A stretch of DNA of 64,000 bases from an uncultured Acetatifactor sp. (GTDB taxonomy: Bacteria; Bacillota; Clostridia; Lachnospirales; Lachnospiraceae): positions 5,182 to 69,181 of the forward strand of contig CAJGCP010000003.1 in NCBI GenBank assembly GCA_904501885.1. Direction: 5' to 3'. Position 1 is the stretch's first letter. Every line of letters starts with the position of its first letter. Shown here in pieces: positions 716-17,546 of the stretch. The notes under the pieces are model-generated. The model saw only the letters and a list, made by a program, of their open reading frames with translations. It had not been told where the DNA came from and made no database searches. The position numbers were made by a program, and so were the translations under genes.

Positions 716-1171
716 ATGAACAAGGATGAATTTACCACACGGGTGTTAGAAATGGAAAAGAGCTTGTACTGTGTTTCCAAAACCATTCTATCAAACGACG
801 AGGATTGCAAGGATGCCATACAAGGTACAATTCTGAAGGCTTATAAGAATTTGTCCGATTTGCGGCAGGATTGCTATTTTAAGACATGGATGACACGCAT
901 TCTGCTGAACGAATGCTATGACATTGTCAAAAGAAATAAATATCAGGTCCCTTATGAGGACTATATGGCAGATTTGGAAGAAAAGGAAAATTATTCTGAG
1001 GTCTACATAGAAATTCAGAATTTAGAGGAGAAGTATCGGGTGCCGTTTGTTTTGCATTATGTAGAGGGCTTTTCTTTACGAGAGATTTCCCGAATACTAA
1101 AAACCACTGAAGCAGGAATTAAAATGCGGTTGTTGAGAGCCAGAAGGATGCTGAGGGAACAGCTATTTTAA
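716..1171 (+). CDS. ECF-type RNA polymerase sigma-70 family factor
   Basis: Region 2-like FKTWMTRILLNECYDIVKR and region 4 HTH LREISRILKTTEAGIKMRLLRARRML. The 151-aa size is typical of ECF sigmas. Confidence 0.85.
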   Translation: MNKDEFTTRVLEMEKSLYCVSKTILSNDEDCKDAIQGTILKAYKNLSDLRQDCYFKTWMTRILLNECYDIVKRNKYQVPYEDYMADLEEKENYSEVYIEIQNLEEKYRVPFVLHYVEGFSLREISRILKTTEAGIKMRLLRARRMLREQLF

Positions 1172-1191
1172 AGATGGGATAGGAGGAAAGG

Positions 1192-2709
1192 ATGAAAAAT
1201 TATAATTGGAAAATCGAGATGCCGGAAATTCCGACGAACATTCGTGCAGCGATAGTGGCAACGCTGGAAGAGATAAACGATCTTCCGGATAATAGTACAA
1301 GGATTAGAAGGATTAAAGGGAAATTTTTGTTGCCCTTAGTAGCGATTTTGTGTCTTGCGATAGGAGGAACAGTAGTTGCGGGGGTGAATTTATATCAGCA
1401 GCGCATGGAAGCAATGAACAGGGATATGCTGGAAGATTTTTATACTAAGGCGTATGCTGGAAGTGTATTTCATTATAGCAGAGAATTATCGGATGCAGAA
1501 AGGCGAAGCTACGAGGCTTTGGTAAAGGCATACGAAAATGAAGGAAGATTTCCGCAAGGGATTGTTCGTTACTTAGAGGACTATAAGGATTATAATGGTG
1601 AGGGTATCGGTTTGTACGCCGACAGAAGTACTCTGTTTTTGCCTGATTATGAAATGTCAGAGGAGGAGGTGCTTCAAATCATCGATTTCGAGCACAAGCT
1701 GTCTTATAGTGTGAATACGATTGGCGCGGAAATTGTGGAGGGGGAGTACCACTTTTCTAATGATTATGATCAGTTGGCACCTGAGACGGACGGAAATGAT
1801 ATTATCGCATACGAGGGAACCGTGGGTATTATTTGTGCAACAGAAGGAAAAGAATGCCTGTATATAGCTGGAGATAATATAATTGAGAGAATGACTTTTG
1901 GAGCAAACAAAGGGAAGCCCTTTTACAAGGCCAATTTTGGTGAAAACACGGAAGTATTTACCATGGAAGAAGATATGGAACAGGGATTATATGTGTTAAT
2001 CTTAACAAAGGGAAGAGACAATTATGCGGAAAGCAAAATTTTACATATCGACAAAAATGGAAAACTAATTTATGAAAAGGAAATAAAGGAATATATTGCG
2101 AGTGATATTGCGGTGGATAGTATCGGTCGTCTGTATGTGGAGACTGACACGGAAGTATATGTGTATGATAAAAATGGAGAGCAGGTATGTGCATGGCAAA
2201 TCAAATATAGCCTTCAAAACGGAAGTATGTGCCGTGGAAAGGATGGAAAAGTTTATACGCTCTGCGAAGATAAGCCATTTCAAGCATGCCTTTTGCGTCT
2301 TGACCCGGATGCGGAAGAACAGGTTACAATGGTTGCGTCAGATGGACTTCCCACGGGGACGCCTCATTGTGCAGTGCTGGCGAGGGGGATGGAAACTGAT
2401 TTTGTCATTTGGCGGTATGACGGAGTATATGCATATAATCTCGGAGATAACTTTGTATACAAAGTTATGGAACTCTATGAAGCGCCTCTACCCTGGGAAG
2501 AAGCGGAGTTTATGGTGTTAGAGGATGGAAGATTGGTTTTTATAAAATACTTTGACGCGCTGGTTGAAGAAGGGGAGGGGATGAAGATAATGCCTATTCC
2601 GCAATCCATCAGGATGTGTTATGTGAGTTGCCCTAAAGTAAGTTTGAAAGATAAAGTTGTCTTTGGGCGTTCTTCCGAGGCGGCTTCGAAAGAGGAATTA
2701 AAAGAATAA
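1192..2709 (+). CDS. putative anti-sigma factor, single-pass membrane protein with a large extracytoplasmic domain
   Basis: Lies 20 nt downstream of the ECF sigma gene. Short cytoplasmic N-terminus, one TM (LLPLVAILCLAIGGTVVAGV) and a ~430-aa outside domain. No ZAS motif. The call rests on position only. Confidence 0.45.
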   Translation: MKNYNWKIEMPEIPTNIRAAIVATLEEINDLPDNSTRIRRIKGKFLLPLVAILCLAIGGTVVAGVNLYQQRMEAMNRDMLEDFYTKAYAGSVFHYSRELSDAERRSYEALVKAYENEGRFPQGIVRYLEDYKDYNGEGIGLYADRSTLFLPDYEMSEEEVLQIIDFEHKLSYSVNTIGAEIVEGEYHFSNDYDQLAPETDGNDIIAYEGTVGIICATEGKECLYIAGDNIIERMTFGANKGKPFYKANFGENTEVFTMEEDMEQGLYVLILTKGRDNYAESKILHIDKNGKLIYEKEIKEYIASDIAVDSIGRLYVETDTEVYVYDKNGEQVCAWQIKYSLQNGSMCRGKDGKVYTLCEDKPFQACLLRLDPDAEEQVTMVASDGLPTGTPHCAVLARGMETDFVIWRYDGVYAYNLGDNFVYKVMELYEAPLPWEEAEFMVLEDGRLVFIKYFDALVEEGEGMKIMPIPQSIRMCYVSCPKVSLKDKVVFGRSSEAASKEELKE

Positions 2710-2741
2710 GAAAACAGAGGCGATAAAACTGTTGACAACAG

Positions 2742-2790
2742 AGACCACAGGTGGTAGTCTATAGGCGAGACTACTGCTTGTGGTCTTTTG
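2742..2790 (+). terminator. terminator-like hairpin after the sigma/anti-sigma pair
   Basis: AGACCACA..GTAGTC / GACTAC..TGTGGTCT stem with an internal mismatch, then a short T-run. Confidence 0.45.
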
Positions 2791-2860
2791 GTTAAATGAG
2801 AAATATGTGCTGATAGATAATTGAGTACACATATAACGCATGATAAAGGAGGATACATAG

Positions 2861-3220
2861 ATGGAAATTCAATTGGGAGTAATTGAGGCGCGTTACGCAG
2901 ATATGATTTGGGAGCATGAGCCGGTGACATCGTCGGAATTGGTGAAGATGACAGCGGTGGAGTTTCAGTGGAAACGCACCACGGCGCACAATGTGTTGCG
3001 GAGGTTGATAGATAAGGGACTGTTCCGGAACGATAACGGATTGGTGACTTCCGTGATGTCCAGGGAAGAGTTTTATGCGAGACAGAGCAAACAATACGTG
3101 GAAGACTCTTTTTCGGGCTCGTTGCCTGCGTTTATCGCAGCGTTTACACAAAATGCAAAATTGACACCGGAAGAGGCCCAGGCAATCCGTCAAATGATTG
3201 ACCAAGCGGAGGAAAAGTGA
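2861..3220 (+). CDS. BlaI/MecI/CopY family transcriptional repressor
   Basis: 119-aa winged-helix protein. It matches the family pattern (..E..IM..LW......S.ELV...) and overlaps the downstream M56 gene, as blaI-blaR1 pairs do. Confidence 0.85.
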   Translation: MEIQLGVIEARYADMIWEHEPVTSSELVKMTAVEFQWKRTTAHNVLRRLIDKGLFRNDNGLVTSVMSREEFYARQSKQYVEDSFSGSLPAFIAAFTQNAKLTPEEAQAIRQMIDQAEEK

Positions 3221-6039
3221 TGCAGGGAGTGATGATGGGAGATTTGTTTTTCAAATTGCTAAATATCAGTATTACTGCAGGGTGGCTTATTTTGGCGATT
3301 GTTTGCGTGCGCCTTCTTTTCAAAAAAATGCCCAAGTGGGTCAGTTGTATGTTGTGGGGAATAGTGGCAGTTCGGTTGATTTTCCCATTTTCTGTTGAAA
3401 GTGCTTTCAGCTTACAGCCCAGTGCCGAGCCCATCAAGTCCAGCACGATTGTTGAGGGGCAGGTATTAAACTATAGACCTTCGGTTAACAGCGGTCTGCC
3501 TGCGATAGATGACGCGGTGAACCCGGCATTGTTTGAGATGTTTGATTACCCGCCGATGCGCAGTGTCGCACCTTTGCAGATTGTTACCGCTGTTGCGGTA
3601 AATGTTTGGCTGTTGGGAATGATTTTGCTTGTTTTGTTTGCGGCCATCAGTGTGTTGCGCCTGCGCTTTCAGGTTCGAGAGTCGGTGCGTCATACGGCAA
3701 ACATTTTCCTATGTGACCGGGTGCAATCCCCTTTTATTTTAGGAAGCATCAGGCCGAGGGTGTACCTGCCGTCCAGCCTTTCTCAAGAGGAAATGGAGTA
3801 TGTCATTGCCCATGAGAAAGCACATTTACGCAGAAAGGATCACTGGTGGAAGCCGATAGGGTACCTGCTTTTGTGCGTATATTGGTTCCAGCCGCTTTGT
3901 TGGCTGGCATATATTTTGCTGTGCAAAGACATAGAATTAGCATGTGACGAAAAAGTGATTCGCCAAATGAGTATGGAAGACAAAAAAGAGTACTCACGGG
4001 TACTGTTGTCCTGCGCGACGCAAAGGCACCTGGTGGTAACTTGCCCTTTGGCGTTCGGTGAAGTGGGGGTAAAGGAAAGGGTGAAAACGGTTTTAAATTA
4101 TAAAAAGCCTGCGTTTTGGATTACGGTAGCGGCCATTGTGCTCTGTGTGGTGGTGGCGGTCTGTTTTTTGACCACTCCGGAAGAAAGTTCGGAGAAAGAC
4201 GCCTGGGTGGACGAATGGAATGCTGATGCTACCGATGCAGAAGGAGCGGAAGGAACCGGTGCGTGGGTGACCGAAGAAATCCACCTAGAAAAACGGGATG
4301 TGACCCACGATGGTGTGGAGGATTTTATTGTCACTTCCATGAAATACGACCCGTCCATCATTAATCCGAATCTGCCATTGAAAGAGAAAATTGCACAGCA
4401 AATCAGGTACGACGTGGTGAACGTAGCGATATATGACGGACAGGGAAGTTCCGATGAGTATAATGAGGAACAATTTCTTTGGTCACAGGATTATTCCTGG
4501 GTGCATGTGGGGAATGGTCAGGTAAGCGTCGTGCAGGCGGATGGCAAAGACTATCTGCTCACCAGTAATCTTTGGGCAGGACAGGGAACTGCAAGATGGA
4601 ATTATGAAGTTTTCTCGTTAAATTCTCTGGGTGAAAAAAATGTTGTGGAACAGCAGTCCATTGAATTTGATATAAATACAGAGGATGCTAGTGGAGAGCG
4701 CAGGACATTTAGAGAGTCCATAAACAAGTATATCAATGATGGCACCCTGATTGTAGCCTGTGATGTGGATCAGGATGTCGAGAATCAGTTTGTCAGTACC
4801 GATGAGGAAACATATGTACCGCTGGATTATTATGGTCAGGCACTTGTGAAGTTTGATGTATTGGAAGAAAACGAAACATCAGCAGAAGGATTTGTTACAA
4901 TAGATGTCTCTAAGATTGCGGAAATTGAGATAACAAACGGCAATACCGGTGTGCGGAAGAAACTTACACCGAAAGAGCAGTATTCGCAGGAGTATTATAA
5001 CTATAATGACTTGGTAAAACTGTATCGCCAGTTGGGACTTACCTCGCAATATGAGCCTAATTCCAGGGTTGGATATCAGTACTGTATGTGGTTGAAGGAT
5101 GCAGAAGGCAGTGTTTTGCAGACGGTTACTCCATACAAGGATGGGTTGACGGTGGATGGAATCTTCTACCAATACGATGATACGGATGAAAATGCAGCGG
5201 CATCTTTGCGGCTGATGGAATTTATGGAGTACATTTTTCAGCAGGATATATGTTCTTTACCGAAGGCACCTGACTATCTGTGGCCTACTGCCAGTCAAAC
5301 GGTATCTACCACTTTTGGGGAGCACGAAAATGGTGTTACGACGGAGCATATAAACATTGCCGGAGCGGAAGGAGATGATGTGATTGCCATAGCAGACGGC
5401 AAAATTCTGGAAACAGGCTACGAGTCAACGGTGGGTAGTTATATTATCTTGGATTTGGGAAATGGAGTGCATGCAAAATATGGGCATTTAGAGAAAGTAA
5501 TCGCGTACAAGGGGATGGAAGTGTCTCAAGGTCAAATGATTGGAATACTGGGTAAAACAGGCATGGCTACGGGACCTAATTTACTATTTGCTATTTATGT
5601 GAACGGGACTGCAGTGGATCCTTTGACTTATGAAGGCGGAATTGATGGAAATTGTGTTTTGGTGTTAACTGACCCGAATTGGGGCATCAAGCTAGCGGCA
5701 GAGAATGTTACATCAACCGGTGTAACAATCCACTGTGCCCAATCCGGCGGGGAGCCAACCGGCGAGTTGCGGACGGGAAGTTATTATGTGATTGAAAAAT
5801 ACGTAGAAGGAGTCTGGGAAAAAGTAGAATACTTGCCCCATGAACATGAGATTGCTTGGACCGCCGAGGCATGGACAATTCCCAAGGATGAAGTACGCCA
5901 ATGGGAAGTGAATTGGGAATGGTTATATGGGGAACTCCAGAAAGGTCGATACAGAATAGGTAAGGAAATTATGGATTTTAGAGGTACCGGCGATTATGAT
6001 CAAGCGCTGCATTATGCGGAGTTTGAGATAAAGAATTAA
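3217..6039 (+). CDS. BlaR1/MecR1-like M56 peptidase signal transducer with a large extracellular region containing a degenerate M23 (LytM-like) domain
   Basis: N-terminal TM helices. HExxH zinc motif HEKAH at nt 3811-3825 in the context VIAHEKAHLRRKDHWWK. M23-like block at ~5290-5630 (..YGHLEKV..GQMIGILGKTGMATGPNLLFAIYVNGTAVDP). Confidence 0.8.
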   Translation: MMQGVMMGDLFFKLLNISITAGWLILAIVCVRLLFKKMPKWVSCMLWGIVAVRLIFPFSVESAFSLQPSAEPIKSSTIVEGQVLNYRPSVNSGLPAIDDAVNPALFEMFDYPPMRSVAPLQIVTAVAVNVWLLGMILLVLFAAISVLRLRFQVRESVRHTANIFLCDRVQSPFILGSIRPRVYLPSSLSQEEMEYVIAHEKAHLRRKDHWWKPIGYLLLCVYWFQPLCWLAYILLCKDIELACDEKVIRQMSMEDKKEYSRVLLSCATQRHLVVTCPLAFGEVGVKERVKTVLNYKKPAFWITVAAIVLCVVVAVCFLTTPEESSEKDAWVDEWNADATDAEGAEGTGAWVTEEIHLEKRDVTHDGVEDFIVTSMKYDPSIINPNLPLKEKIAQQIRYDVVNVAIYDGQGSSDEYNEEQFLWSQDYSWVHVGNGQVSVVQADGKDYLLTSNLWAGQGTARWNYEVFSLNSLGEKNVVEQQSIEFDINTEDASGERRTFRESINKYINDGTLIVACDVDQDVENQFVSTDEETYVPLDYYGQALVKFDVLEENETSAEGFVTIDVSKIAEIEITNGNTGVRKKLTPKEQYSQEYYNYNDLVKLYRQLGLTSQYEPNSRVGYQYCMWLKDAEGSVLQTVTPYKDGLTVDGIFYQYDDTDENAAASLRLMEFMEYIFQQDICSLPKAPDYLWPTASQTVSTTFGEHENGVTTEHINIAGAEGDDVIAIADGKILETGYESTVGSYIILDLGNGVHAKYGHLEKVIAYKGMEVSQGQMIGILGKTGMATGPNLLFAIYVNGTAVDPLTYEGGIDGNCVLVLTDPNWGIKLAAENVTSTGVTIHCAQSGGEPTGELRTGSYYVIEKYVEGVWEKVEYLPHEHEIAWTAEAWTIPKDEVRQWEVNWEWLYGELQKGRYRIGKEIMDFRGTGDYDQALHYAEFEIKN

Positions 6040-8113: not shown

Positions 8114-9124
8114 ATGAGAATGAACAAGAAAAATGGTACGGTATCCAAACTGCTGGTTGGTTTGGCGGTGACCGTTGCCTTGGGATTTGGCGCCACCCGA
8201 ACGCCGGAGGATGGGCAAGAGACAGTTGTGCTGGAGAACTCGTTAGTAGCTGAAACGATAGAGAACAGTGCACAGGCTGAAACAGGAAATCAAGATGCAT
8301 CGGCAGTAGAGAGTCCATCCACATCAGACGCCCCCATATCCGAAATGGAAATCCATTTTATCGACGTGGAGCAGGGGGACGCCACTTTAATCAAAGTGGA
8401 CGACCACTATATGCTCATCGACGCAGGCGACAATAGCATGGGTACCAAGGTTCAATTATATTTGACCAAGCAGGGTGTGAAAAAATTGGACTATCTGATC
8501 TTGACCCACACCGACGCAGACCACATCGGCGGCGCGGATGTGGTGGTAACAAAATTTGATATTGACACCATCTTCATGGGGGATTATAAAAAGGATAATA
8601 AGACTTACAATGAACTGATAGAAGCGATGAAGTACAAATCCCTGACGCACTCTATCCCCGAGGTGGGAGCGCAGTATCAACTGGGGGATGCCACCTTTAC
8701 CATTTTGGGACCCAAGGAAGTTTATGACGACCCCAATAACACCAGCATTGCGTTGAAACTGACCCATGGTGAAAACACCTTCCTGTTCAGTGGCGATGCA
8801 GAAGCGGAGGCGGAGGCAGACATTCTGGACACGGGATTGGATTTGGATGTGGATGTGTATCATGCGGGACATCACGGAAGCAGTACATCTTCCACCACAG
8901 AATTTTTGGACGCCATGACACCGGAGTATGCGGTGATTAGCTGTAAGGAAGGAAATAGCTATGGTCACCCTCATGCGGAGACACTGATCAATTTCCGAGC
9001 CAAAGGAATACAGGTGTTCCGTACAGACGAACAGGGTAGTGTGGTGGCCTTCAGCGATGGAGAAAACATTACTTGGAACTGCGCACCCAGCGACAGCTGG
9101 CAGGCGGGTGAGCGAGGACAGTAA
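8114..9124 (+). CDS. secreted or membrane-anchored MBL-fold hydrolase (ComEC C-terminal domain-like)
   Basis: N-terminal hydrophobic segment. HFIDVEQGDATLI and LILTHTDADHIGG motifs typical of ComEC/Rec2-type metallo-beta-lactamase domains. Confidence 0.7.
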   Translation: MRMNKKNGTVSKLLVGLAVTVALGFGATRTPEDGQETVVLENSLVAETIENSAQAETGNQDASAVESPSTSDAPISEMEIHFIDVEQGDATLIKVDDHYMLIDAGDNSMGTKVQLYLTKQGVKKLDYLILTHTDADHIGGADVVVTKFDIDTIFMGDYKKDNKTYNELIEAMKYKSLTHSIPEVGAQYQLGDATFTILGPKEVYDDPNNTSIALKLTHGENTFLFSGDAEAEAEADILDTGLDLDVDVYHAGHHGSSTSSTTEFLDAMTPEYAVISCKEGNSYGHPHAETLINFRAKGIQVFRTDEQGSVVAFSDGENITWNCAPSDSWQAGERGQ

Positions 9125-9191
9125 TCATATTGAAACGGGCGAAAACGAGGACGGCAATGCAGCCGGTTCCGACGGAAGAGAGAGGTAAATA

Positions 9192-9944
9192 ATGAAATTA
9201 ATTTCATGGAATGTAAACGGATTAAGAGCATGTATGCAGAAAGGATTTCTGGATTTCTTCAACGAAGCAGATGCTGACATTTTCTGCCTGCAGGAAACCA
9301 AGATGCAGGAGGGACAGTTGGATTTGGAATTGCCCGGATATCATCAGTATTGGAATTATGCGGAGAAAAAGGGATACTCCGGCACGGCACTTTTCGCCAA
9401 GCAGGAGCCCATAAGTGTGACCTACGGTATTGGTGTGGAGGAACACGACCATGAAGGCAGAGTGATTACGGCGGAATTTGAAGACTACTATGTGGTCACC
9501 GTGTATGTGCCCAATTCCCAGAGAGAGTTGGCGCGTCTGGACTATCGGTGTCAGTGGGAGGCAGCATTCCTGAATTATATTTTGACCTTGGAAGAGAAAA
9601 AGCCCGTCATCTACTGCGGCGACTTGAATGTGGCACATCAGGAGATCGACCTGAAAAATCCCAGGACCAATCATCAAAATGCAGGATTTACAGATGAAGA
9701 AAGGGCATGCTTTACACAGGTGCTGGAGAGTGGTTATATCGATACCTTCCGTCATTTTTATCCGGATGTGGAGAATGTATATTCCTGGTGGTCCTATATG
9801 TTCCAGGCCAGAAGCAAGAATGTGGGCTGGCGTATTGACTACTTTGTGGCTTCCCGCAAGTTAGAACAGAGACTGAGAGATGCGAAGATCCATACAGACA
9901 TTCTTGGCTCCGATCATTGTCCTGTAGAATTGACGCTTGAATAG
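9192..9944 (+). CDS. xth: exodeoxyribonuclease III (AP endonuclease)
   Basis: [14 protein letters not shown]-terminus, CLQETK, GDLNVAH, SDHCPV. 250 aa. Confidence 0.9.
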
Positions 9945-9972
9945 ATAACGATACAATAAGAGGTAATTGTAT

Positions 9973-11067
9973 ATGAAAATCCTACTAGAAAATGTGACAA
10001 AAATATTTCCCGGCCGCGGCAAAGGTGCTAAGGAAGTACGCGCCGTGGATAATTTTAATTTTGAAATCCCTGATGGAAAACTGATTGGTTTGTTGGGACC
10101 TTCCGGTTGTGGTAAGAGTACCACGTTAAATTTATTGTCCGGACTCCTTCAGCCCACGGAGGGCAAAATTTTCTTCGGTGAGGACGAAGTGACAAACCTG
10201 CCTGCAGAACACAGAGGCGTGGGATTGGTATTCCAAAATTATGCGCTGTATCCTCATTTGACGGTATTACAGAATATTACCTTCCCCCTGGAAAACCTGA
10301 AAGGGGATGCCAAACTCACCAAAGAAGAACGTGTGAAAAGAGCTACAGAAGCGGCGAAACTGGTACAGATAGAAAATCTGATGGACAGAAAACCCGGAGA
10401 ACTTTCCGGCGGACAGCAGCAGCGTGTGGCCATCGCCAGAGCATTGGTCAAGATGACTAAGGTACTTTTGCTGGACGAGCCCTTATCTAACTTGGACGCC
10501 AGACTTCGTTTGCAGACCAGAGAGGAAATTCGCCGTATCCAGAAGGAAACGGGAATCACCACCATCTTTGTTACCCATGACCAGGAGGAGGCTATGAGCA
10601 TCTCCGATATGATCGTGGTGATGAAGGATGGTTTGGTACATCAGATTGGCAAGCCTCAGGAAGTGTATGACAATCCTACCAACCTTTTCGTGGCAAAGTT
10701 TTTAGGCACTCCCCCCATCAATGTGTTCGCCGGCAAAATCGAGGACGGTGCGCTCTATGTGGGCGAGGACAAATTGTTTGATGTCAGTGTAGATGTAAAA
10801 CCGGGAGATGTGTATGTAGGCATCCGCCCCGAAGGTTTTGTGCTTCAGGCGGACGGACCCTTGCACTGTAGTTTATCTCGCGTGGAAGTGATGGGAAGAG
10901 ATATGAGTGTGGTGGCAGGCCATCCTGCATTTTTGGATGCGTCCATCCGTGCCATCATTGCATCAGAAAACCTGGCAGAGATTTCCGGTGACGCTGTGAA
11001 TTTTGATGTGAAGCCCGGCAAGGTTTTAGTATTTGACAAGGAAACGGAAGAACGGATTCTCATCTAA
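9973..11067 (+). CDS. sugar ABC transporter ATP-binding protein (MalK/MsmX/UgpC type)
   Basis: Walker A GPSGCGKST, signature LSGGQQQR, Walker B LLLDEPLS and a C-terminal regulatory/TOBE-like region. ATG 9973 lies 10 nt after GAGG. Confidence 0.9.
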   Translation: MKILLENVTKIFPGRGKGAKEVRAVDNFNFEIPDGKLIGLLGPSGCGKSTTLNLLSGLLQPTEGKIFFGEDEVTNLPAEHRGVGLVFQNYALYPHLTVLQNITFPLENLKGDAKLTKEERVKRATEAAKLVQIENLMDRKPGELSGGQQQRVAIARALVKMTKVLLLDEPLSNLDARLRLQTREEIRRIQKETGITTIFVTHDQEEAMSISDMIVVMKDGLVHQIGKPQEVYDNPTNLFVAKFLGTPPINVFAGKIEDGALYVGEDKLFDVSVDVKPGDVYVGIRPEGFVLQADGPLHCSLSRVEVMGRDMSVVAGHPAFLDASIRAIIASENLAEISGDAVNFDVKPGKVLVFDKETEERILI

Positions 11068-14546: not shown

Positions 14547-15359
14547 ATGAAGAAGTTAGTAGCATTGATGGCAGTTCTTGCACTTTCTGTTAGCATGATC
14601 GGTTGTGGTGCAGCAGAGGTTGAGAGCGAAGTGGCAGAGAGCAGCGTAGCTGTAAGCGAAGTTGTAGAGAGCGAAGCAGTAGACGCTCCTGCATTTGAGG
14701 AAGCAAAGTCTGAAGGCGTTATGACCTATGCAGAGTATGTAGCAGCACCTTTGGATAGCGAAGTAGTAATTGAGACTTATGTACAGGCTAAGCAGTCTTG
14801 GTGGGACAACAAGGGTACCTTCTATACCCAGGACGCAGAAGGTGCATACTTCCTGTATGAAATGGCTTGTACCGAAGAAGAGTACAATCAGTTGGTTCCC
14901 GGTACCAAGATTAAAGTAACCGGTTACAAGGCTGAGTGGTCCGGTGAAGTTGAAATCATCGACGCAACCTATGAAATCATGGACGACAATACTTATGTAG
15001 CAGAAGCTAAGGATATCACAGCTTCATTGCAGGCTGATGATCTGATCAAATATCAGAACATCTTTGCAGCATTCAAGGGCATGGTAATCGAGCCTTCCTT
15101 CAATGCTGACGGCGAAGAGGTTCCTTTCCTTTACAAATGGGATGGTTCCGGTCAGGACGGCGACGATTTGTACTTCAATGCTTCTATCAATGAGCAGCCT
15201 TTCAACTTCTGTGTTGAGTCTTATCTGACCGGCGCAGGTACCGATGTTTACGAAGCAGTAAAGGCTTTGGAAATCGGACAGACTGTTGATATGGAAGGTT
15301 TCTTGTACTGGTACGAAGGACCTAACGCTCACATCACTGCAGTTAGCGTTGTTGAATAA
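14547..15359 (+). CDS. lipoprotein of unknown function
   Basis: MKKLVALMAVLALSVSMIGCG lipobox preceded by AAGGAGG. Acidic low-complexity linker, then a ~200-aa domain. The ORF-track N-terminal extension was trimmed. Confidence 0.6.
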   Translation: MKKLVALMAVLALSVSMIGCGAAEVESEVAESSVAVSEVVESEAVDAPAFEEAKSEGVMTYAEYVAAPLDSEVVIETYVQAKQSWWDNKGTFYTQDAEGAYFLYEMACTEEEYNQLVPGTKIKVTGYKAEWSGEVEIIDATYEIMDDNTYVAEAKDITASLQADDLIKYQNIFAAFKGMVIEPSFNADGEEVPFLYKWDGSGQDGDDLYFNASINEQPFNFCVESYLTGAGTDVYEAVKALEIGQTVDMEGFLYWYEGPNAHITAVSVVE

Positions 15360-15382
15360 TTGAAAATAGTGAGTGAATGATG

Positions 15383-15420
15383 AAAGGCAAATGTGGGAAA
15401 CTGCATTTGCCTTTTTGTTT
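15383..15420 (+). terminator. Rho-independent terminator
   Basis: AAAGGCAAATG / CATTTGCCTTT 11-bp stem, then TTTTGTTT. Confidence 0.8.
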
Positions 15421-15424
15421 GTCT

Positions 15425-15490
15425 GCCAATCGTCGGAAAAATATTCGGCCAATCGTTGGGAAAATATTGCCAATAGCGGGAAACAGTGCT
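15425..15490. repeat. three tandem ~22-bp copies of GCCAATCGTCGGAAAAAT-like motif
   Basis: Copies start at 15425, 15448 and 15469. The same motif recurs at 20909 and 20932. Confidence 0.8.
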
Positions 15491-15495
15491 ATACT
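15467..15495 (+). promoter_or_regulatory. sigma-A-type promoter TTGCCA-17-TATACT
   Basis: -35 at 15467-15472 and -10 at 15490-15495 with an exact 17-nt spacer. Confidence 0.55.
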
Positions 15496-15500
15496 GATAT

Positions 15501-15710
15501 CGCCAAACTAACTTAAAAATGTGTGAAATTGGGTGTATTTTTCTATTTATGGGAGAACTACGCTTTTTTGTGTATGCAGTGGATGAATTTGATAAAAACG
15601 CAAATTCTATCACTGTGTATACGGGTACGCCCCATTTCACATGAGTTAGTTTGGCGACTATCGGAGTTTGCGTTTTTTATGCGATCACTTCGGTGGTCGC
15701 ATTTTTTATT
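15501..15710 (+). ncRNA. candidate ~210-nt structured RNA / cis-regulatory leader (class not recognised)
   Basis: The 5' segment CGCCAAACTAACT (15501-15513) is perfectly complementary to AGTTAGTTTGGCG (15644-15656). A second imperfect helix follows (ATGTGTGAAATTGGG / CCCATTTCACAT). The element ends in a UUCG-loop terminator. Confidence 0.4.
15679..15710 (+). terminator. Rho-independent terminator with UUCG tetraloop
   Basis: ATGCGATCAC-TTCG-GTGGTCGCAT (one G-U pair), then TTTTTTA. Confidence 0.75.
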
Positions 15711-15744
15711 TATAAAACGGTTGCAATATCAATGAACGATAGAG

Positions 15745-17511
15745 GTGAAACACTTGATTATAAAGCATAATTTGCTGAAAAAACAAAAAGCAAGAAAAAC
15801 GTCCTCGCTGGTGGATATAGATATATATCATTGGGCGGAGGAACTCTACGACGAACTGGAGAAACAGGGTGTGATTCAGCGCATGAAGGATACTAACCAA
15901 TTAGGGGTTATCCGGGTGGCGAAGCATCTGACAAAGAGCCGGTACGACTACATGCTTTTGCAGTTGTATTTTCACCAACTGATACGTAAAGATACCGCAC
16001 TACAGTCTTCTCTGGAATATACCTACGGGAGTTATGTCAGGGCATCTGAGTTTCATCGTGAACTGGATTATATAGACAAACAGAAAATAACGGTTGGTGA
16101 TTTACTTCAAATACTAACCATTTCATACAATATAGGACATTTTTATAACACCTTTGTATCCTCGAAGGCGGCAGTCACGTTCGCCGGAATAAATCCGGAT
16201 TTCAAGCGGACGATAGTAGAGTCCTTTGACAGAACGGACGGACAAAGTCTGGCGCAACATATACTGGAAGAAAAGAGTTATCTGCGCTACCATTTGCTGA
16301 ATTCGCTGTTTATTTTAGAACGCTGTGACCAAAGTAAGACTTCCGTTCGACTGGCACAGGATTTGATTTATACATATGTAAATGAGAAGAGCCTGGCCCC
16401 TGATAGCAAACTTCGTTATGTGTTGAGGCTATATAGAAATGTTCGCAACATTGCATTTCTATCCTATGACTTTCAAATCGCACCGACGCCGATTACCATC
16501 GACTTGTGCGATTCACAATCTATTTTGCTGTTGTTTCATGAATTGTTATCCATATACAACGATAACAGCTCCACGAGGCGGTTGCTGAATTCCATGAACA
16601 AGCTTCTTAATGATACGGTATATAACGAGGAATCTAACACCATTTGTTATCAAATGATCACGGATAGAATGGTGAGCGAACTAAGACAGGTTTCCACGTG
16701 GGATAAAGATATCTACTACTCGATGATGGGAAGCAAGGAAAGCATCTTTAACCGTGATTATGCTCAAAGCAGAAGATATGTATCGGAGGGATTTCTAAAG
16801 TTAACATTCCGGAAAGAACACAGGGAGATTTCTCGGGCACTGTTTTCCAGATTGAATCACATGCAGTATGTTCGCGTGGGATACTATGACCGCAATAGCG
16901 GGGAGCAGACGATTGTAGTATCGCTGAGCAATCAGTGCAAGAAAAAAACACAGGTTGCCTTTCGAGTGTTAGGAGTTGTTACGAACCTATTGCGTACGGT
17001 TCCGGACATTATGAATAATGACCCTCGGTATTTATTGACAACGAAGTTTTACCTGTTTTATCTATGCGGTCAACGACAGATACACATTAAGCCGACCGTT
17101 AGTTCGCAGAATTGCGTGCTATGCACTAAGGGTAAGTCTCAACGGATTCTGTCAATCAATAAAGTGCTCAGGGAAAACGAGGGCGACGAAGACCAGATTC
17201 ACGAGGTGGAGCACTTGCGTTGGGTACTGCAAAAAGATACGAAAAATGATGTATGCATCACCCTTCCGTCCAGTATTTTGGTTTGTGGGAATGGCAATGA
17301 AGACAAAACCTTTTGCGAGTTTGACGGCATGATTATCTATCCAAACAGGACGTCTAACCAGACTGTTTTCTTGGAAGCCAAAAACACCAAGGTAAAACCC
17401 ACATATGGAAAGAAATGTCTGATAGACAAACTGCGGAAATTGAACATCCAATTTGAGGAAGAAGATATAGAAATAAATAAAAAAGACGCAATGCTTTTCT
17501 GGTCTGTGTAG
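15745..17511 (+). CDS. orphan 588-aa cytoplasmic protein: degenerate HD-like N-terminal region + C-terminal PD-(D/E)xK nuclease-like motif
   Basis: No TM or signal peptide. FDGMIIYP..(16 aa)..VFLEAKN gives D527 (nt 17323-25), E544 (17374-76) and K546 (17380-82). The start may instead be TTG 15754, 6 nt after GAGGTG. Confidence 0.55.
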   Translation: MKHLIIKHNLLKKQKARKTSSLVDIDIYHWAEELYDELEKQGVIQRMKDTNQLGVIRVAKHLTKSRYDYMLLQLYFHQLIRKDTALQSSLEYTYGSYVRASEFHRELDYIDKQKITVGDLLQILTISYNIGHFYNTFVSSKAAVTFAGINPDFKRTIVESFDRTDGQSLAQHILEEKSYLRYHLLNSLFILERCDQSKTSVRLAQDLIYTYVNEKSLAPDSKLRYVLRLYRNVRNIAFLSYDFQIAPTPITIDLCDSQSILLLFHELLSIYNDNSSTRRLLNSMNKLLNDTVYNEESNTICYQMITDRMVSELRQVSTWDKDIYYSMMGSKESIFNRDYAQSRRYVSEGFLKLTFRKEHREISRALFSRLNHMQYVRVGYYDRNSGEQTIVVSLSNQCKKKTQVAFRVLGVVTNLLRTVPDIMNNDPRYLLTTKFYLFYLCGQRQIHIKPTVSSQNCVLCTKGKSQRILSINKVLRENEGDEDQIHEVEHLRWVLQKDTKNDVCITLPSSILVCGNGNEDKTFCEFDGMIIYPNRTSNQTVFLEAKNTKVKPTYGKKCLIDKLRKLNIQFEEEDIEINKKDAMLFWSV

Positions 17512-17546
17512 AGAAGAATGCGAGAAAATTTCTGAAGGAATGAATT

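Follow-up and report, generated by a model that had tools for sequence, protein, structure and literature searches.

Structured leaders that lie close to a promoter and end in an intrinsic terminator are found in several regulatory systems, namely (i) riboswitches, with their expression platforms, and (ii) the antisense attenuation of plasmid rep genes, e.g., in pT181 and pIP501, where mutually exclusive upstream pairing and an RNA-RNA contact initiated by a loop act ahead of a gene devoid of its own promoter. In lambdoid phages, the PR'-6S RNA-tR' unit subjected to Q antitermination comprises a constitutive promoter and a terminated RNA of ~200 nucleotides (nt) upstream of the late/packaging genes, and the put RNAs of HK022 are double hairpins of ~70 nt. 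In C. difficile, cwpV and flgB are governed by invertible leader switches (PMC2784873, PMC5386303, PMC7446863); for cwpV, a segment of 150-200 base pairs (bp) flanked by inverted repeats sits between a constitutive promoter and a surface-protein gene, and regulation takes place after initiation, via terminator formation in one orientation. The element considered here occupies positions 15467-15708 of a 64,000-nt stretch of DNA (hereafter the window, i.e., the whole stretch analysed) from an uncultured Acetatifactor sp. of the family Lachnospiraceae (contig CAJGCP010000003.1, assembly GCA_904501885.1). It genuinely belongs to a family of leader RNAs of ~210 bases that is apparently uncatalogued, that provides each copy with its own strong promoter and terminator, and whose hosts are gut and rumen Clostridia (Lachnospiraceae and Oscillospiraceae) together with their prophages and phages. 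By kind, it is a terminator-controlling leader RNA, the architecture of which is unlike that of every family tested, since the apical loop of a rod pairs with the tail preceding the terminator and this platform is conserved across unrelated downstream (cargo) genes. Compared with the attenuators of pT181 and pIP501, the "antisense" partner, i.e., the apical loop, resides in the same transcript, ~60 nt upstream of its target, and no countertranscript is known; compared with both rep attenuation and riboswitches, the sensor is a rod of ~155 nt with hypervariable stems and the terminator sequence is itself conserved whatever the cargo.

The initial annotation of the window, made from its letters only, had described a sigma-A promoter, a closing helix between the first 13 nt of the RNA and a segment 130 nt downstream, a second imperfect helix and a terminator with a UUCG loop. 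Each of these parts was recovered: the promoter TTGCCA-17-TATACT is present, with a TG-extended -10 box in addition, the segments 15501-15513 and 15644-15656 are fully complementary (13 bp without mismatch, or 14 bp when T15500/A15657 is counted), the second helix associates 15522-15537 with 15626-15641 (88% over 16 nt), and the UUCG hairpin at 15679-15702 is followed by a U-run. Over positions 14800-18000, the promoter is the sole promoter-like site of the + strand (shuffled sequences gave a mean of 8.5 sites, both strands counted), and transcription is predicted to start at G15502. As the ABC-transporter operon located upstream ends with a terminator of its own (15382-15415), the leader RNA forms a separate transcription unit. 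The constituents of the element are as follows, with helices numbered P1 to P5 from the base of the rod.

15467-15495, + strand: sigma-70-type promoter, with -35 box TTGCCA (15467-15472), 17-nt spacer and TG-extended -10 box TGcTATACT (15487-15495; TG 15487-15488, TATACT 15490-15495)
15501-15513, + strand: 5' arm of P1 (CGCCAAACUAACU, equivalent to CGCCAAACTAACT), at the extreme 5' end of the predicted transcript, pairing perfectly with 15644-15656
15514-15519, + strand: A-rich asymmetric internal loop without counterpart on the 3' strand, reading UAAAAA here and UAAUAG in the family consensus, from the predicted fold
15520-15537, + strand: 5' strand of P2/P2b, UGUGUGAAAU-U-GGGUGUA, from the fold and from compensatory changes (alignment columns 22-27 with 170-175)
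15539-15556, + strand: P3, a small hairpin at the three-way junction, predicted in most members but not in every single-sequence fold
15557-15567, + strand: U-rich joining strand after P3, from the predicted fold
15568-15624, + strand: P4, the long stem carrying apical P5 (15568-15582 with 15610-15624, 6 G.U pairs included)
15585-15607, + strand: P5, apical stem-loop GAAUUUG-AUAAAAACG-CAAAUUC, near-invariant across the family
15594-15608, + strand: loop side of the long-range pairing (AAAAACGCAAAUUCU), complementary to the tail
15626-15642, + strand: 3' strand of P2b/P2, from the predicted fold and complementarity
15644-15656, + strand: 3' arm of P1 (AGUUAGUUUGGCG), from complementarity and family covariation
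15657-15662, + strand: conserved linker, of family consensus GACUAUC once G15656, with which the P1 3' arm ends, is included
15663-15677, + strand: tail side of the long-range pairing (GGAGUUUGCGUUUUU), in overlap with 15658-15666 (CUAUCGGAG), which could serve as the 5' arm of an anti-terminator
15679-15708, + strand: intrinsic terminator with 10-bp stem, cUUCGg loop and U-run (stem-loop ATGCGATCAC-TTCG-GTGGTCGCAT at 15679-15702, then TTTTTTATTTA)
15688-15696, + strand: terminator bases able to pair with 15658-15666 instead (CUUCGGUGG)

The region just upstream of the element has a peculiarity of its own, as three direct repeats of ~22 nt (TGCCAATCGTCGGAAAAATATT, GGCCAATCGTTGGGAAAATATT and TGCCAATAGCGGGAAA, spaced 23 and 21 nt) occupy 15424-15483, the third one overlapping the -35 box. 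These repeats, present in two copies in the related loci L035 and L079/L080, are locus-specific and have GCCAA in common with the beginning of the RNA; a DNA-binding regulator could use them as an array of sites.

The predicted fold is exceptionally stable for its composition, with a minimum free energy (MFE) of -87.1 kcal/mol for the 212-nt RNA against -45.0 +/- 3.9 kcal/mol for dinucleotide shuffles (z = -10.9), none of 200 shuffles being as stable. In the window, the rod reaches -63.7 kcal/mol with 13 G.U pairs when read from the + strand, but only -40.6 kcal/mol with a single G.U pair when read from the - strand; both the G.U bias and the weaker fold of the - strand therefore point to an RNA made from the + strand rather than to a DNA palindrome. 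The same holds across the family: both strands were folded for 24 loci, and in 23 of them the transcribed one proved more stable (by 2-28 kcal/mol, usually at least 10) and carries 3-13 G.U pairs against 0-4 on its complement. When searched against Rfam 15, the whole window gave no match at the gathering thresholds and, at E<=10, the region 15300-15900 returned only long-hairpin matches to plant miRNA precursors (29.7 bits versus a cut-off of 113) along with noise; the view first taken, that no known riboswitch class could be recognised, thus held against this database. Coding potential was considered for two open reading frames (ORFs) and rejected for both, i.e., a 31-codon ORF within the rod (ATG 15551), whose start is lost in L035 (ATG to ACG), and a 70-codon ORF (15523-15735), whose frame is broken by a 4-nt indel. 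On a related matter, the lipoprotein gene following the RNA at a human-gut prophage locus (L063-L078) is called as either 384 or 347 amino acids (aa) in public annotation; the 384-aa call is an annotation artefact, with a start inside the leader RNA and an open frame crossing the tail and terminator.

Relatives were searched first in metagenomes using the P1 arms only (GCCAAACTAACT, 115-145 nt, AGTTAGTTTGGC). The 20 loci so retrieved all possess an apical motif, tail and terminator that were no part of the search pattern. They have in common (i) a near-consensus sigma-70 promoter ending 6-7 nt ahead of P1, (ii) the apical motif GAAUUUGAUAAAAAYGCAAAUUCC, (iii) the linker and tail GACUAUCGGAGUUUGCGUUUUU, and (iv) the terminator GUGCGnnnrCUUCGGUrnnCGCAC followed by U5-7. 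Scans with the tail only, together with a BLAST match in a faecal phage record, added loci with different but compensated P1 helices (GCCAAAUCAAUCU/AGAUUGGUUUGGC and GUCACACGAAC/GUUCGUGUGAC), which brings the family to ~28 distinct loci from rumen, camel and human gut samples; a near-consensus promoter precedes every member and its distance to P1 is constant. The element of the window displays all six family features, i.e., the promoter at P1, the rod with three-way junction, the apical motif, the GGAGUUUGCGUUUUU tail, the cUUCGg terminator and a co-oriented gene, and it matches the family profile with E = 4e-50 (nhmmer), being itself part of that profile; the orthologues in L035, L079 and L080 match equally well. 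The element occurs once in the 64-kb window and once per contig fetched. A BLAST search of the RNA against plasmids gave no match, and against phages the tail alone matched, in MT835503. Neither a literature search with sequence strings nor the accessible part of the supplements of large structured-RNA catalogues of the human microbiome yielded a match, and the motif may be among the thousands of unnamed candidates such catalogues contain (PMC8040213, PMC10690425).

Within this family, every member folds to a common shape comprising P1 (12-13 bp), an A-rich bulge on the 5' side, P2/P2b, a three-way junction, a long P4 and P5, where the junction usually carries the small hairpin P3 and the U-rich joining strand. 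The rod measures 150-170 nt and its MFE ranges from -53 to -77 kcal/mol. In the family, pairing reaches 97.8% for P1, where 6 of the 13 pairs show double changes, and 94% for the terminator, pair 6 of which occurs as five pair types. P4 is hypervariable (32% identity between arms) but always self-complementary; its arms pair at -19.5 kcal/mol with their own partner and at -7.4 kcal/mol with cross-partners, the own partner being the best one in 23 of 23 cases. Likewise, the differences between the window and L035 fall mainly in P4 and are compensatory, including a change from U-A to A-U. For P1, the loop-tail pairing and the terminator, pairs were counted on a register-exact mini-alignment: taken together, 96.6% of the cells are paired, compared with 93.2% in column shuffles (0/500 reaching the observed value) and only 33-45% in slid-register controls, and 10 pairs show double changes where 3.8 would be expected. 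A covarying multi-helix fold thus lies in cis within the 5' leader, with compensated variation in P1, P2, P4 and the terminator. The element of L079/L080 (8677-8885) exhibits an uncompensated A-A mismatch in P1 (AGTTAGTATGGCG).

The RNA is also a mosaic. In L038 and L057, it is 100% identical between flanks that are only 72% and 65% identical. In the orthologous loci L055 (5216-5435) and L056 (530-745), which precede the same secreted protein of 940-971 aa, the upstream region is 95% and the tail and terminator 100% identical, as opposed to 61% for the interior of the rod. Copies of the family seem to swap the rod as one module.

A further trait is the complementarity between the P5 loop with its 3' arm (15594-15608) and the tail (15663-15677), which extends over 15 bp and is 97.2% canonical in the family. 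For pairs 1-14, canonical pairing is found in 335 of 336 cells (24 sequences); one pair is compensated by a double change, from A-U to G-C in L048, and eight others vary on one side only, always in a way that keeps the pairing. The duplex is worth -11 to -19 kcal/mol and would form either within one molecule, as a long-range pseudoknot, or between two molecules. The tail can enter another structure, in which 15658-15666 pair with the loop and 3' arm of the terminator (15688-15696), and the loop-tail pairing overlaps this competing hairpin. For the isolated tail of the window, the alternative hairpin is the MFE structure (-22.1 versus -14.9 kcal/mol for the terminator); over the isolated tails of the family, the MFE structure is the alternative hairpin in 14/25 and the terminator in 11/25, and the gap between the two is usually 0-3 kcal/mol.

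In all ~28 loci, the next gene lies on the same strand and starts 5-150 nt past the terminator, often with its ribosome-binding site (RBS) 15-30 nt from the U-run. Most loci have a spacer that could not accommodate a promoter, and no promoter-like site was found in the two spacers scanned, i.e., those of the window and L079; for the former, this agrees with the initial annotation, which had seen no separate promoter between the terminator and the start codon. Expression of the cargo should therefore depend on read-through, and the riboswitch- or attenuator-like layout proposed from the single locus is borne out by the arrangement of the whole family. The cargo comprises DUF4352/DUF5067 and other lipoproteins, BspA-type leucine-rich repeat (LRR) proteins, small membrane and zinc-ribbon proteins, proteins of 763-785 aa with an NPPY motif, and, on the faecal phage scaffold MT835503.1 (L058), an EcoRI-like methylase with a GmrSD_N/HNH protein. 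On several prophage contigs, the RNA and a lipoprotein gene stand immediately upstream of terS and terL (L067, L069); elsewhere, the unit is a cassette of one or two genes set between housekeeping genes, a chromosomal one in the window, L040 and L048. As the genes behind the RNA are unrelated to each other, no single regulon specific to a metabolite can be made out. As for the apparent "regulator" upstream of the RNA in phage loci, the called ORF of 141 aa is low-complexity junk, without match to PHROG or NCBIfam.

Several other genes were observed in the vicinity of family members. A 23S_rRNA_IVP four-helix-bundle gene (PF05635, which we take to be the fold family of Avd of diversity-generating retroelements) is found immediately upstream of the cassette in L048 (4637-4990), L049 (154-426) and L050 (4975-5421), all in orientation-corrected coordinates, and a further one ~3 kb downstream in L059. 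In L058 (MT835503.1), a tRNA-like gene recognised by eye, probably tRNA-Gly, lies on the minus strand at 60-135, ~200 nt upstream of the leader.

Considering these elements together, the leader may well function, and on balance probably does, as a cis-acting conditional terminator set by the loop-tail pairing. Under this scheme, a near-consensus, constitutive-looking promoter would start transcription at the first base of P1, and the first ~155 nt would fold into a very stable rod, to be followed by the GACUAUC-GGAGUUUGCGUUUUU linker and tail, the terminator and the RBS of the cargo. The P5 loop with its 3' arm (AAAAAYGCAAAUUCC) would then pair with the tail over 15 bp and so keep the tail from forming the competing hairpin with the loop and 3' arm of the terminator. 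By default, the terminator would form and a stable RNA of ~205 nt would be released; a trans-acting factor occupying or remodelling the apical loop or the junction would free the tail, which would form the competing hairpin and permit read-through into the cargo, i.e., in the window, a later-inserted 585-aa gene and an LRR/dockerin gene. A protein or RNA factor, possibly phage- or stress-derived, is favoured as the trigger and a small molecule is less likely, because it is the helices, the loop and the platform that are conserved and not a pocket, no metabolic theme unites the cargo and many copies are phage-borne. The lambdoid unit offers a parallel: in L067 and L069, the element is followed by a lipoprotein gene and then by terS and terL, and read-through would likewise call for a factor or for a polymerase modified by RNA. 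Nonetheless, most copies are outside phage late operons, no Q-like gene was found upstream and, to our knowledge, the λ 6S RNA has no comparable conserved fold.

Several points weigh against a conditional terminator of this kind. In the first instance, an intramolecular loop-tail pairing requires P4/P5 to fold back at the junction, because the tail begins only 6-7 nt past the base of a ~45-bp rod, and the pairing could be intermolecular instead. The anti-terminator pairing (CUAUCGGAG with CUUCGGUAG) is near-invariant, with 8 changed cells that keep the pair and 6 that break it, so that covariation lends it no support, its sequence hardly varying; besides, the cUUCGg loop could be conserved simply for the stability of such a tetraloop. 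Conservation of the terminator as a part of the family fits the pattern of stable small RNAs better than that of riboswitch platforms. The transcription start, the 3' end and read-through are all predictions from sequence, no candidate trans factor was found and, the cargo being functionally mixed, no common signal can be deduced from it.

Some of these points feed directly into an alternative that is clearly less probable but still deserves consideration, i.e., that the element yields an abundant, free-standing small RNA (~205 nt) that works in trans or by binding a protein, with the terminator as its mere 3' end. The loop-tail pairing would then be part of the stable fold or a dimerisation contact, and the downstream genes would live on terminator leak or have landed at a hot spot for recombination or insertion. 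A near-consensus promoter, a strong terminator conserved in sequence, a 5' end buried in a helix as suits a stable RNA, an RNA better conserved than either flank (L038/L057) and cargo genes without mutual relationship all fit this explanation, but it leaves unexplained the adjacent co-oriented gene at all ~28 loci, for which orientation alone has a chance probability of P <1e-7, the lack of room for a promoter in most spacers, and the near iso-energetic terminator and alternative hairpin. With the bacterial 6S RNA, the element has in common a rod-like shape of ~150-200 nt, paired 5' and 3' ends, an asymmetric interior and a strong promoter. This candidate was rejected, as no 6S model matched even at E<=10 and the rod has a three-way junction instead of a large two-sided central bubble; moreover, the element differs from 6S RNA by its conserved 3' tail pairing with the apical loop, its constant position directly upstream of a co-oriented gene and its occurrence as one copy, at a non-syntenic site, in the window and in each contig fetched.

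Rather unlikely is a small-molecule riboswitch. Its aptamer, made up of the three-way junction and the internal loops, would recognise a global signal, e.g., a second messenger, and the bound ligand would favour either the loop-tail pairing or the terminator over the other. The covarying fold does include conserved unpaired segments, namely the UAAUAG bulge, the U-rich junction strand and a CCAU internal loop, the position in cis upstream of genes and a terminator is that of a riboswitch, and a cargo rich in surface and secreted proteins resembles the regulons of cyclic di-GMP. Set against this are the lack of any Rfam riboswitch match, conservation residing in helices, apical loop and expression platform and not in a junction pocket, a platform that is invariant, unlike in most riboswitch classes, and the absence of a functionally coherent gene set, since methylases, nucleases and phage morons provide no metabolic theme.

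More improbable still is a DNA inversion switch responsible for phase variation, with the P1 arms as inverted repeats and crossover sites. The rod being quasi-palindromic, almost its own reverse complement, a flip would preserve the helices but reverse the apical loop, which could no longer pair with the tail, so that the terminator would be pre-empted and termination relieved, i.e., phase variation would be read through the loop-tail complementarity; if true, dozens of cassettes with surface-protein and anti-phage genes, carried by Clostridia of the gut and rumen and by their prophages, would share one switch. The precedent of cwpV, an invertible leader acting via a terminator (PMC2784873), makes this explanation worth weighing, as the size and position of the segment, the post-initiation regulation, the clostridial genome and the cargo classes are all similar. 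The P1 arms are perfect inverted repeats of 12-14 bp between promoter and gene, with a conserved GCCAAA...UUUGGC core, and surface proteins, lipoproteins, methylases and nucleases are typical of phase-variable loci. Above all, in L059 (IMGVR_UViG_3300010346_002427, raw 3654-3857), the whole rod, P1 pair 6 included, is reversed with respect to the promoter and tail. There, the transcribed strand folds at -42.3 kcal/mol against -55.4 kcal/mol for the opposite one, and the G.U bias sits on the non-transcribed strand, pointing to a recent flip between the two P1 arms; its loop cannot pair with its tail and the alternative hairpin is favoured (-18.3 versus -14.8 kcal/mol). Two adjacent genes for large serine recombinases (434 and 529 aa) end ~100 nt upstream of this RNA (orientation-corrected 825-3718). 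Yet L059 is the only inverted one of ~28 distinct loci. The lipoprotein locus is in the forward orientation in 10 independent assemblies and 5 IMG/VR contigs, and the IMG/VR census amounts to 8 forward contigs (3 loci) versus 1 inverted. In relatives carrying the same two recombinase genes (L081, L082), the cargo is another one and the RNA is absent, and the inverted L059 has no counterpart at the same locus. Elsewhere, no adjoining recombinase appeared in a motif scan, a rough check that missed the serine recombinases of L059, and a master recombinase encoded at a distance is conceivable. The strong strand bias indicates selection on one orientation only, and a P1 mismatch is tolerated in L079/L080. 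Compared with cwpV, the segment is a near-perfect hairpin under one-strand RNA selection, the terminator lies outside the repeats, both orientations were not seen at any one locus and no RecV-like recombinase is linked. The evidence thus leans against frequent inversion.

Correia, ERIC and RUP/BOX elements and other miniature inverted-repeat elements are likewise ~150 bp long, with terminal inverted repeats and varied neighbours, and some carry promoters or are RNase III substrates. A mobile or selfish palindromic repeat of this type, devoid of function at the RNA level, would account for the ~155 bp bounded by perfect terminal inverted repeats in many unrelated genomic contexts, but it is highly improbable given a single copy per contig and in the window, a fixed orientation relative to genes, interiors that are hypervariable yet compensated, a strong G.U strand bias, and a conserved unit reaching past the repeats to a correctly spaced promoter and a non-palindromic tail and terminator.

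Equally hard to sustain is the proposal that the RNA is a partner, i.e., an antitoxin, guide or cofactor, of the protein encoded just downstream in the window, a possibility raised in the initial annotation, where that gene was taken as an orphan of 588 aa. The features concerned are the following.

15741-15747, + strand: RBS AGAGGTG for the TTG start at 15754, to which the N-termini of homologues align
15754-17511, + strand: first cargo gene, coding for a conserved hypothetical protein of 585 aa that bears a D...ExK motif in its C-terminal part; an insertion relative to sister strains
17547-20822, + strand: second cargo gene, a BspA-type LRR protein with dockerin, likely the ancestral cargo of the leader

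The gene most likely starts at TTG 15754, which gives 585 instead of 588 aa, as in the 96% relative P0001. Far from being an orphan, it has 389 homologues of uniform length (E<=1e-3), 20 of which, once aligned, are 45-62% identical to it with many invariant residues, including H77, G131-H132, H183, a CxxC motif (457-460) and D527...E544xK546. These homologues occur in Firmicutes and in metagenome-assembled genomes of Desulfobulbaceae, Succinivibrio, Veillonella and Bacteroides (loci L001-L037). The protein has no match in Pfam, PADLOC, NCBIfam or PDB sequence profiles, and a whole-chain Foldseek search of its AlphaFold model (pLDDT 86) against the PDB returned nothing below E = 0.1; the label "nuclease-like," drawn from the D...ExK motif alone, therefore received no confirmation from profile and fold searches, and the gene is likely an uncharacterised defence-island gene. 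The intergenic regions upstream of the homologues, whose collection had been suggested at the outset, do not speak for a partnership. At 30+ genome loci in Firmicutes and other phyla, the gene sits directly behind HsdR (an HsdR-like assignment read from the translated C-terminal ends of the neighbours), DUF2971 or other genes, with neither space for a leader RNA nor a profile match; among the loci of homologues, the RNA is present only at the 96% relative L035.

Conversely, the syntenic sister assemblies L079/L080 possess the same ABC operon followed by the same RNA (nhmmer E = 1e-50), then the BspA-LRR/dockerin gene ~145 nt after the RNA, and no 585-aa gene. Because the leader directly precedes the orthologous LRR gene in these strains, the 585-aa gene is a later insertion into a leader-LRR unit. 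An RNA partnership, although suggested by adjacency in the window and L035 and by a layout recalling type III toxin-antitoxin loci, is thus contradicted by synteny and by the loci of homologues, and the leader family precedes unrelated genes besides; a repeat scan showed no tandem array in the RNA, only scattered direct repeats in two and three copies. A type III toxin-antitoxin system (ToxIN-like) was accordingly rejected, lacking such an array as well as a conserved protein partner, and so was a retron msr-msd, for which terminal pairing is present but no reverse transcriptase was matched among the proteins beside the elements of the window, L040, L058 and L067, the other cargo being unrelated.

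Around these genes, two further observations can be mentioned. In L079, no gene is called over ~1 kb at the start of the LRR region (9030-10009), a gap that may reflect a frameshift or an assembly problem. In the window, convergent genes for HTH_3 (274 aa) and DUF3990 (288 aa) proteins, with overlapping ORFs, lie on the minus strand at 20949-22452 and close the leader-driven operon.

If the leader is indeed a conditional terminator, it would add a new class to the structured regulatory RNAs, one fairly widespread among Lachnospiraceae, Oscillospiraceae and the temperate phages of these families, i.e., in carriers that count among the most abundant but least genetically tractable bacteria of the gut and rumen. 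The architecture would be unusual, with a long rod folding so that its apical loop contacts the sequence just ahead of the terminator, and the cassette could be used as a portable part combining promoter, leader and terminator for engineering these organisms. For the window, the 585-aa gene is recast as a late insertion in an existing leader-LRR operon and not as the partner of the RNA. Across the family, genes as different as those for LRR/dockerin adhesin-like proteins, lipoproteins, methylases, nuclease-type defence proteins and phage morons would be submitted to one and the same checkpoint after initiation, which would imply one common signal or factor.

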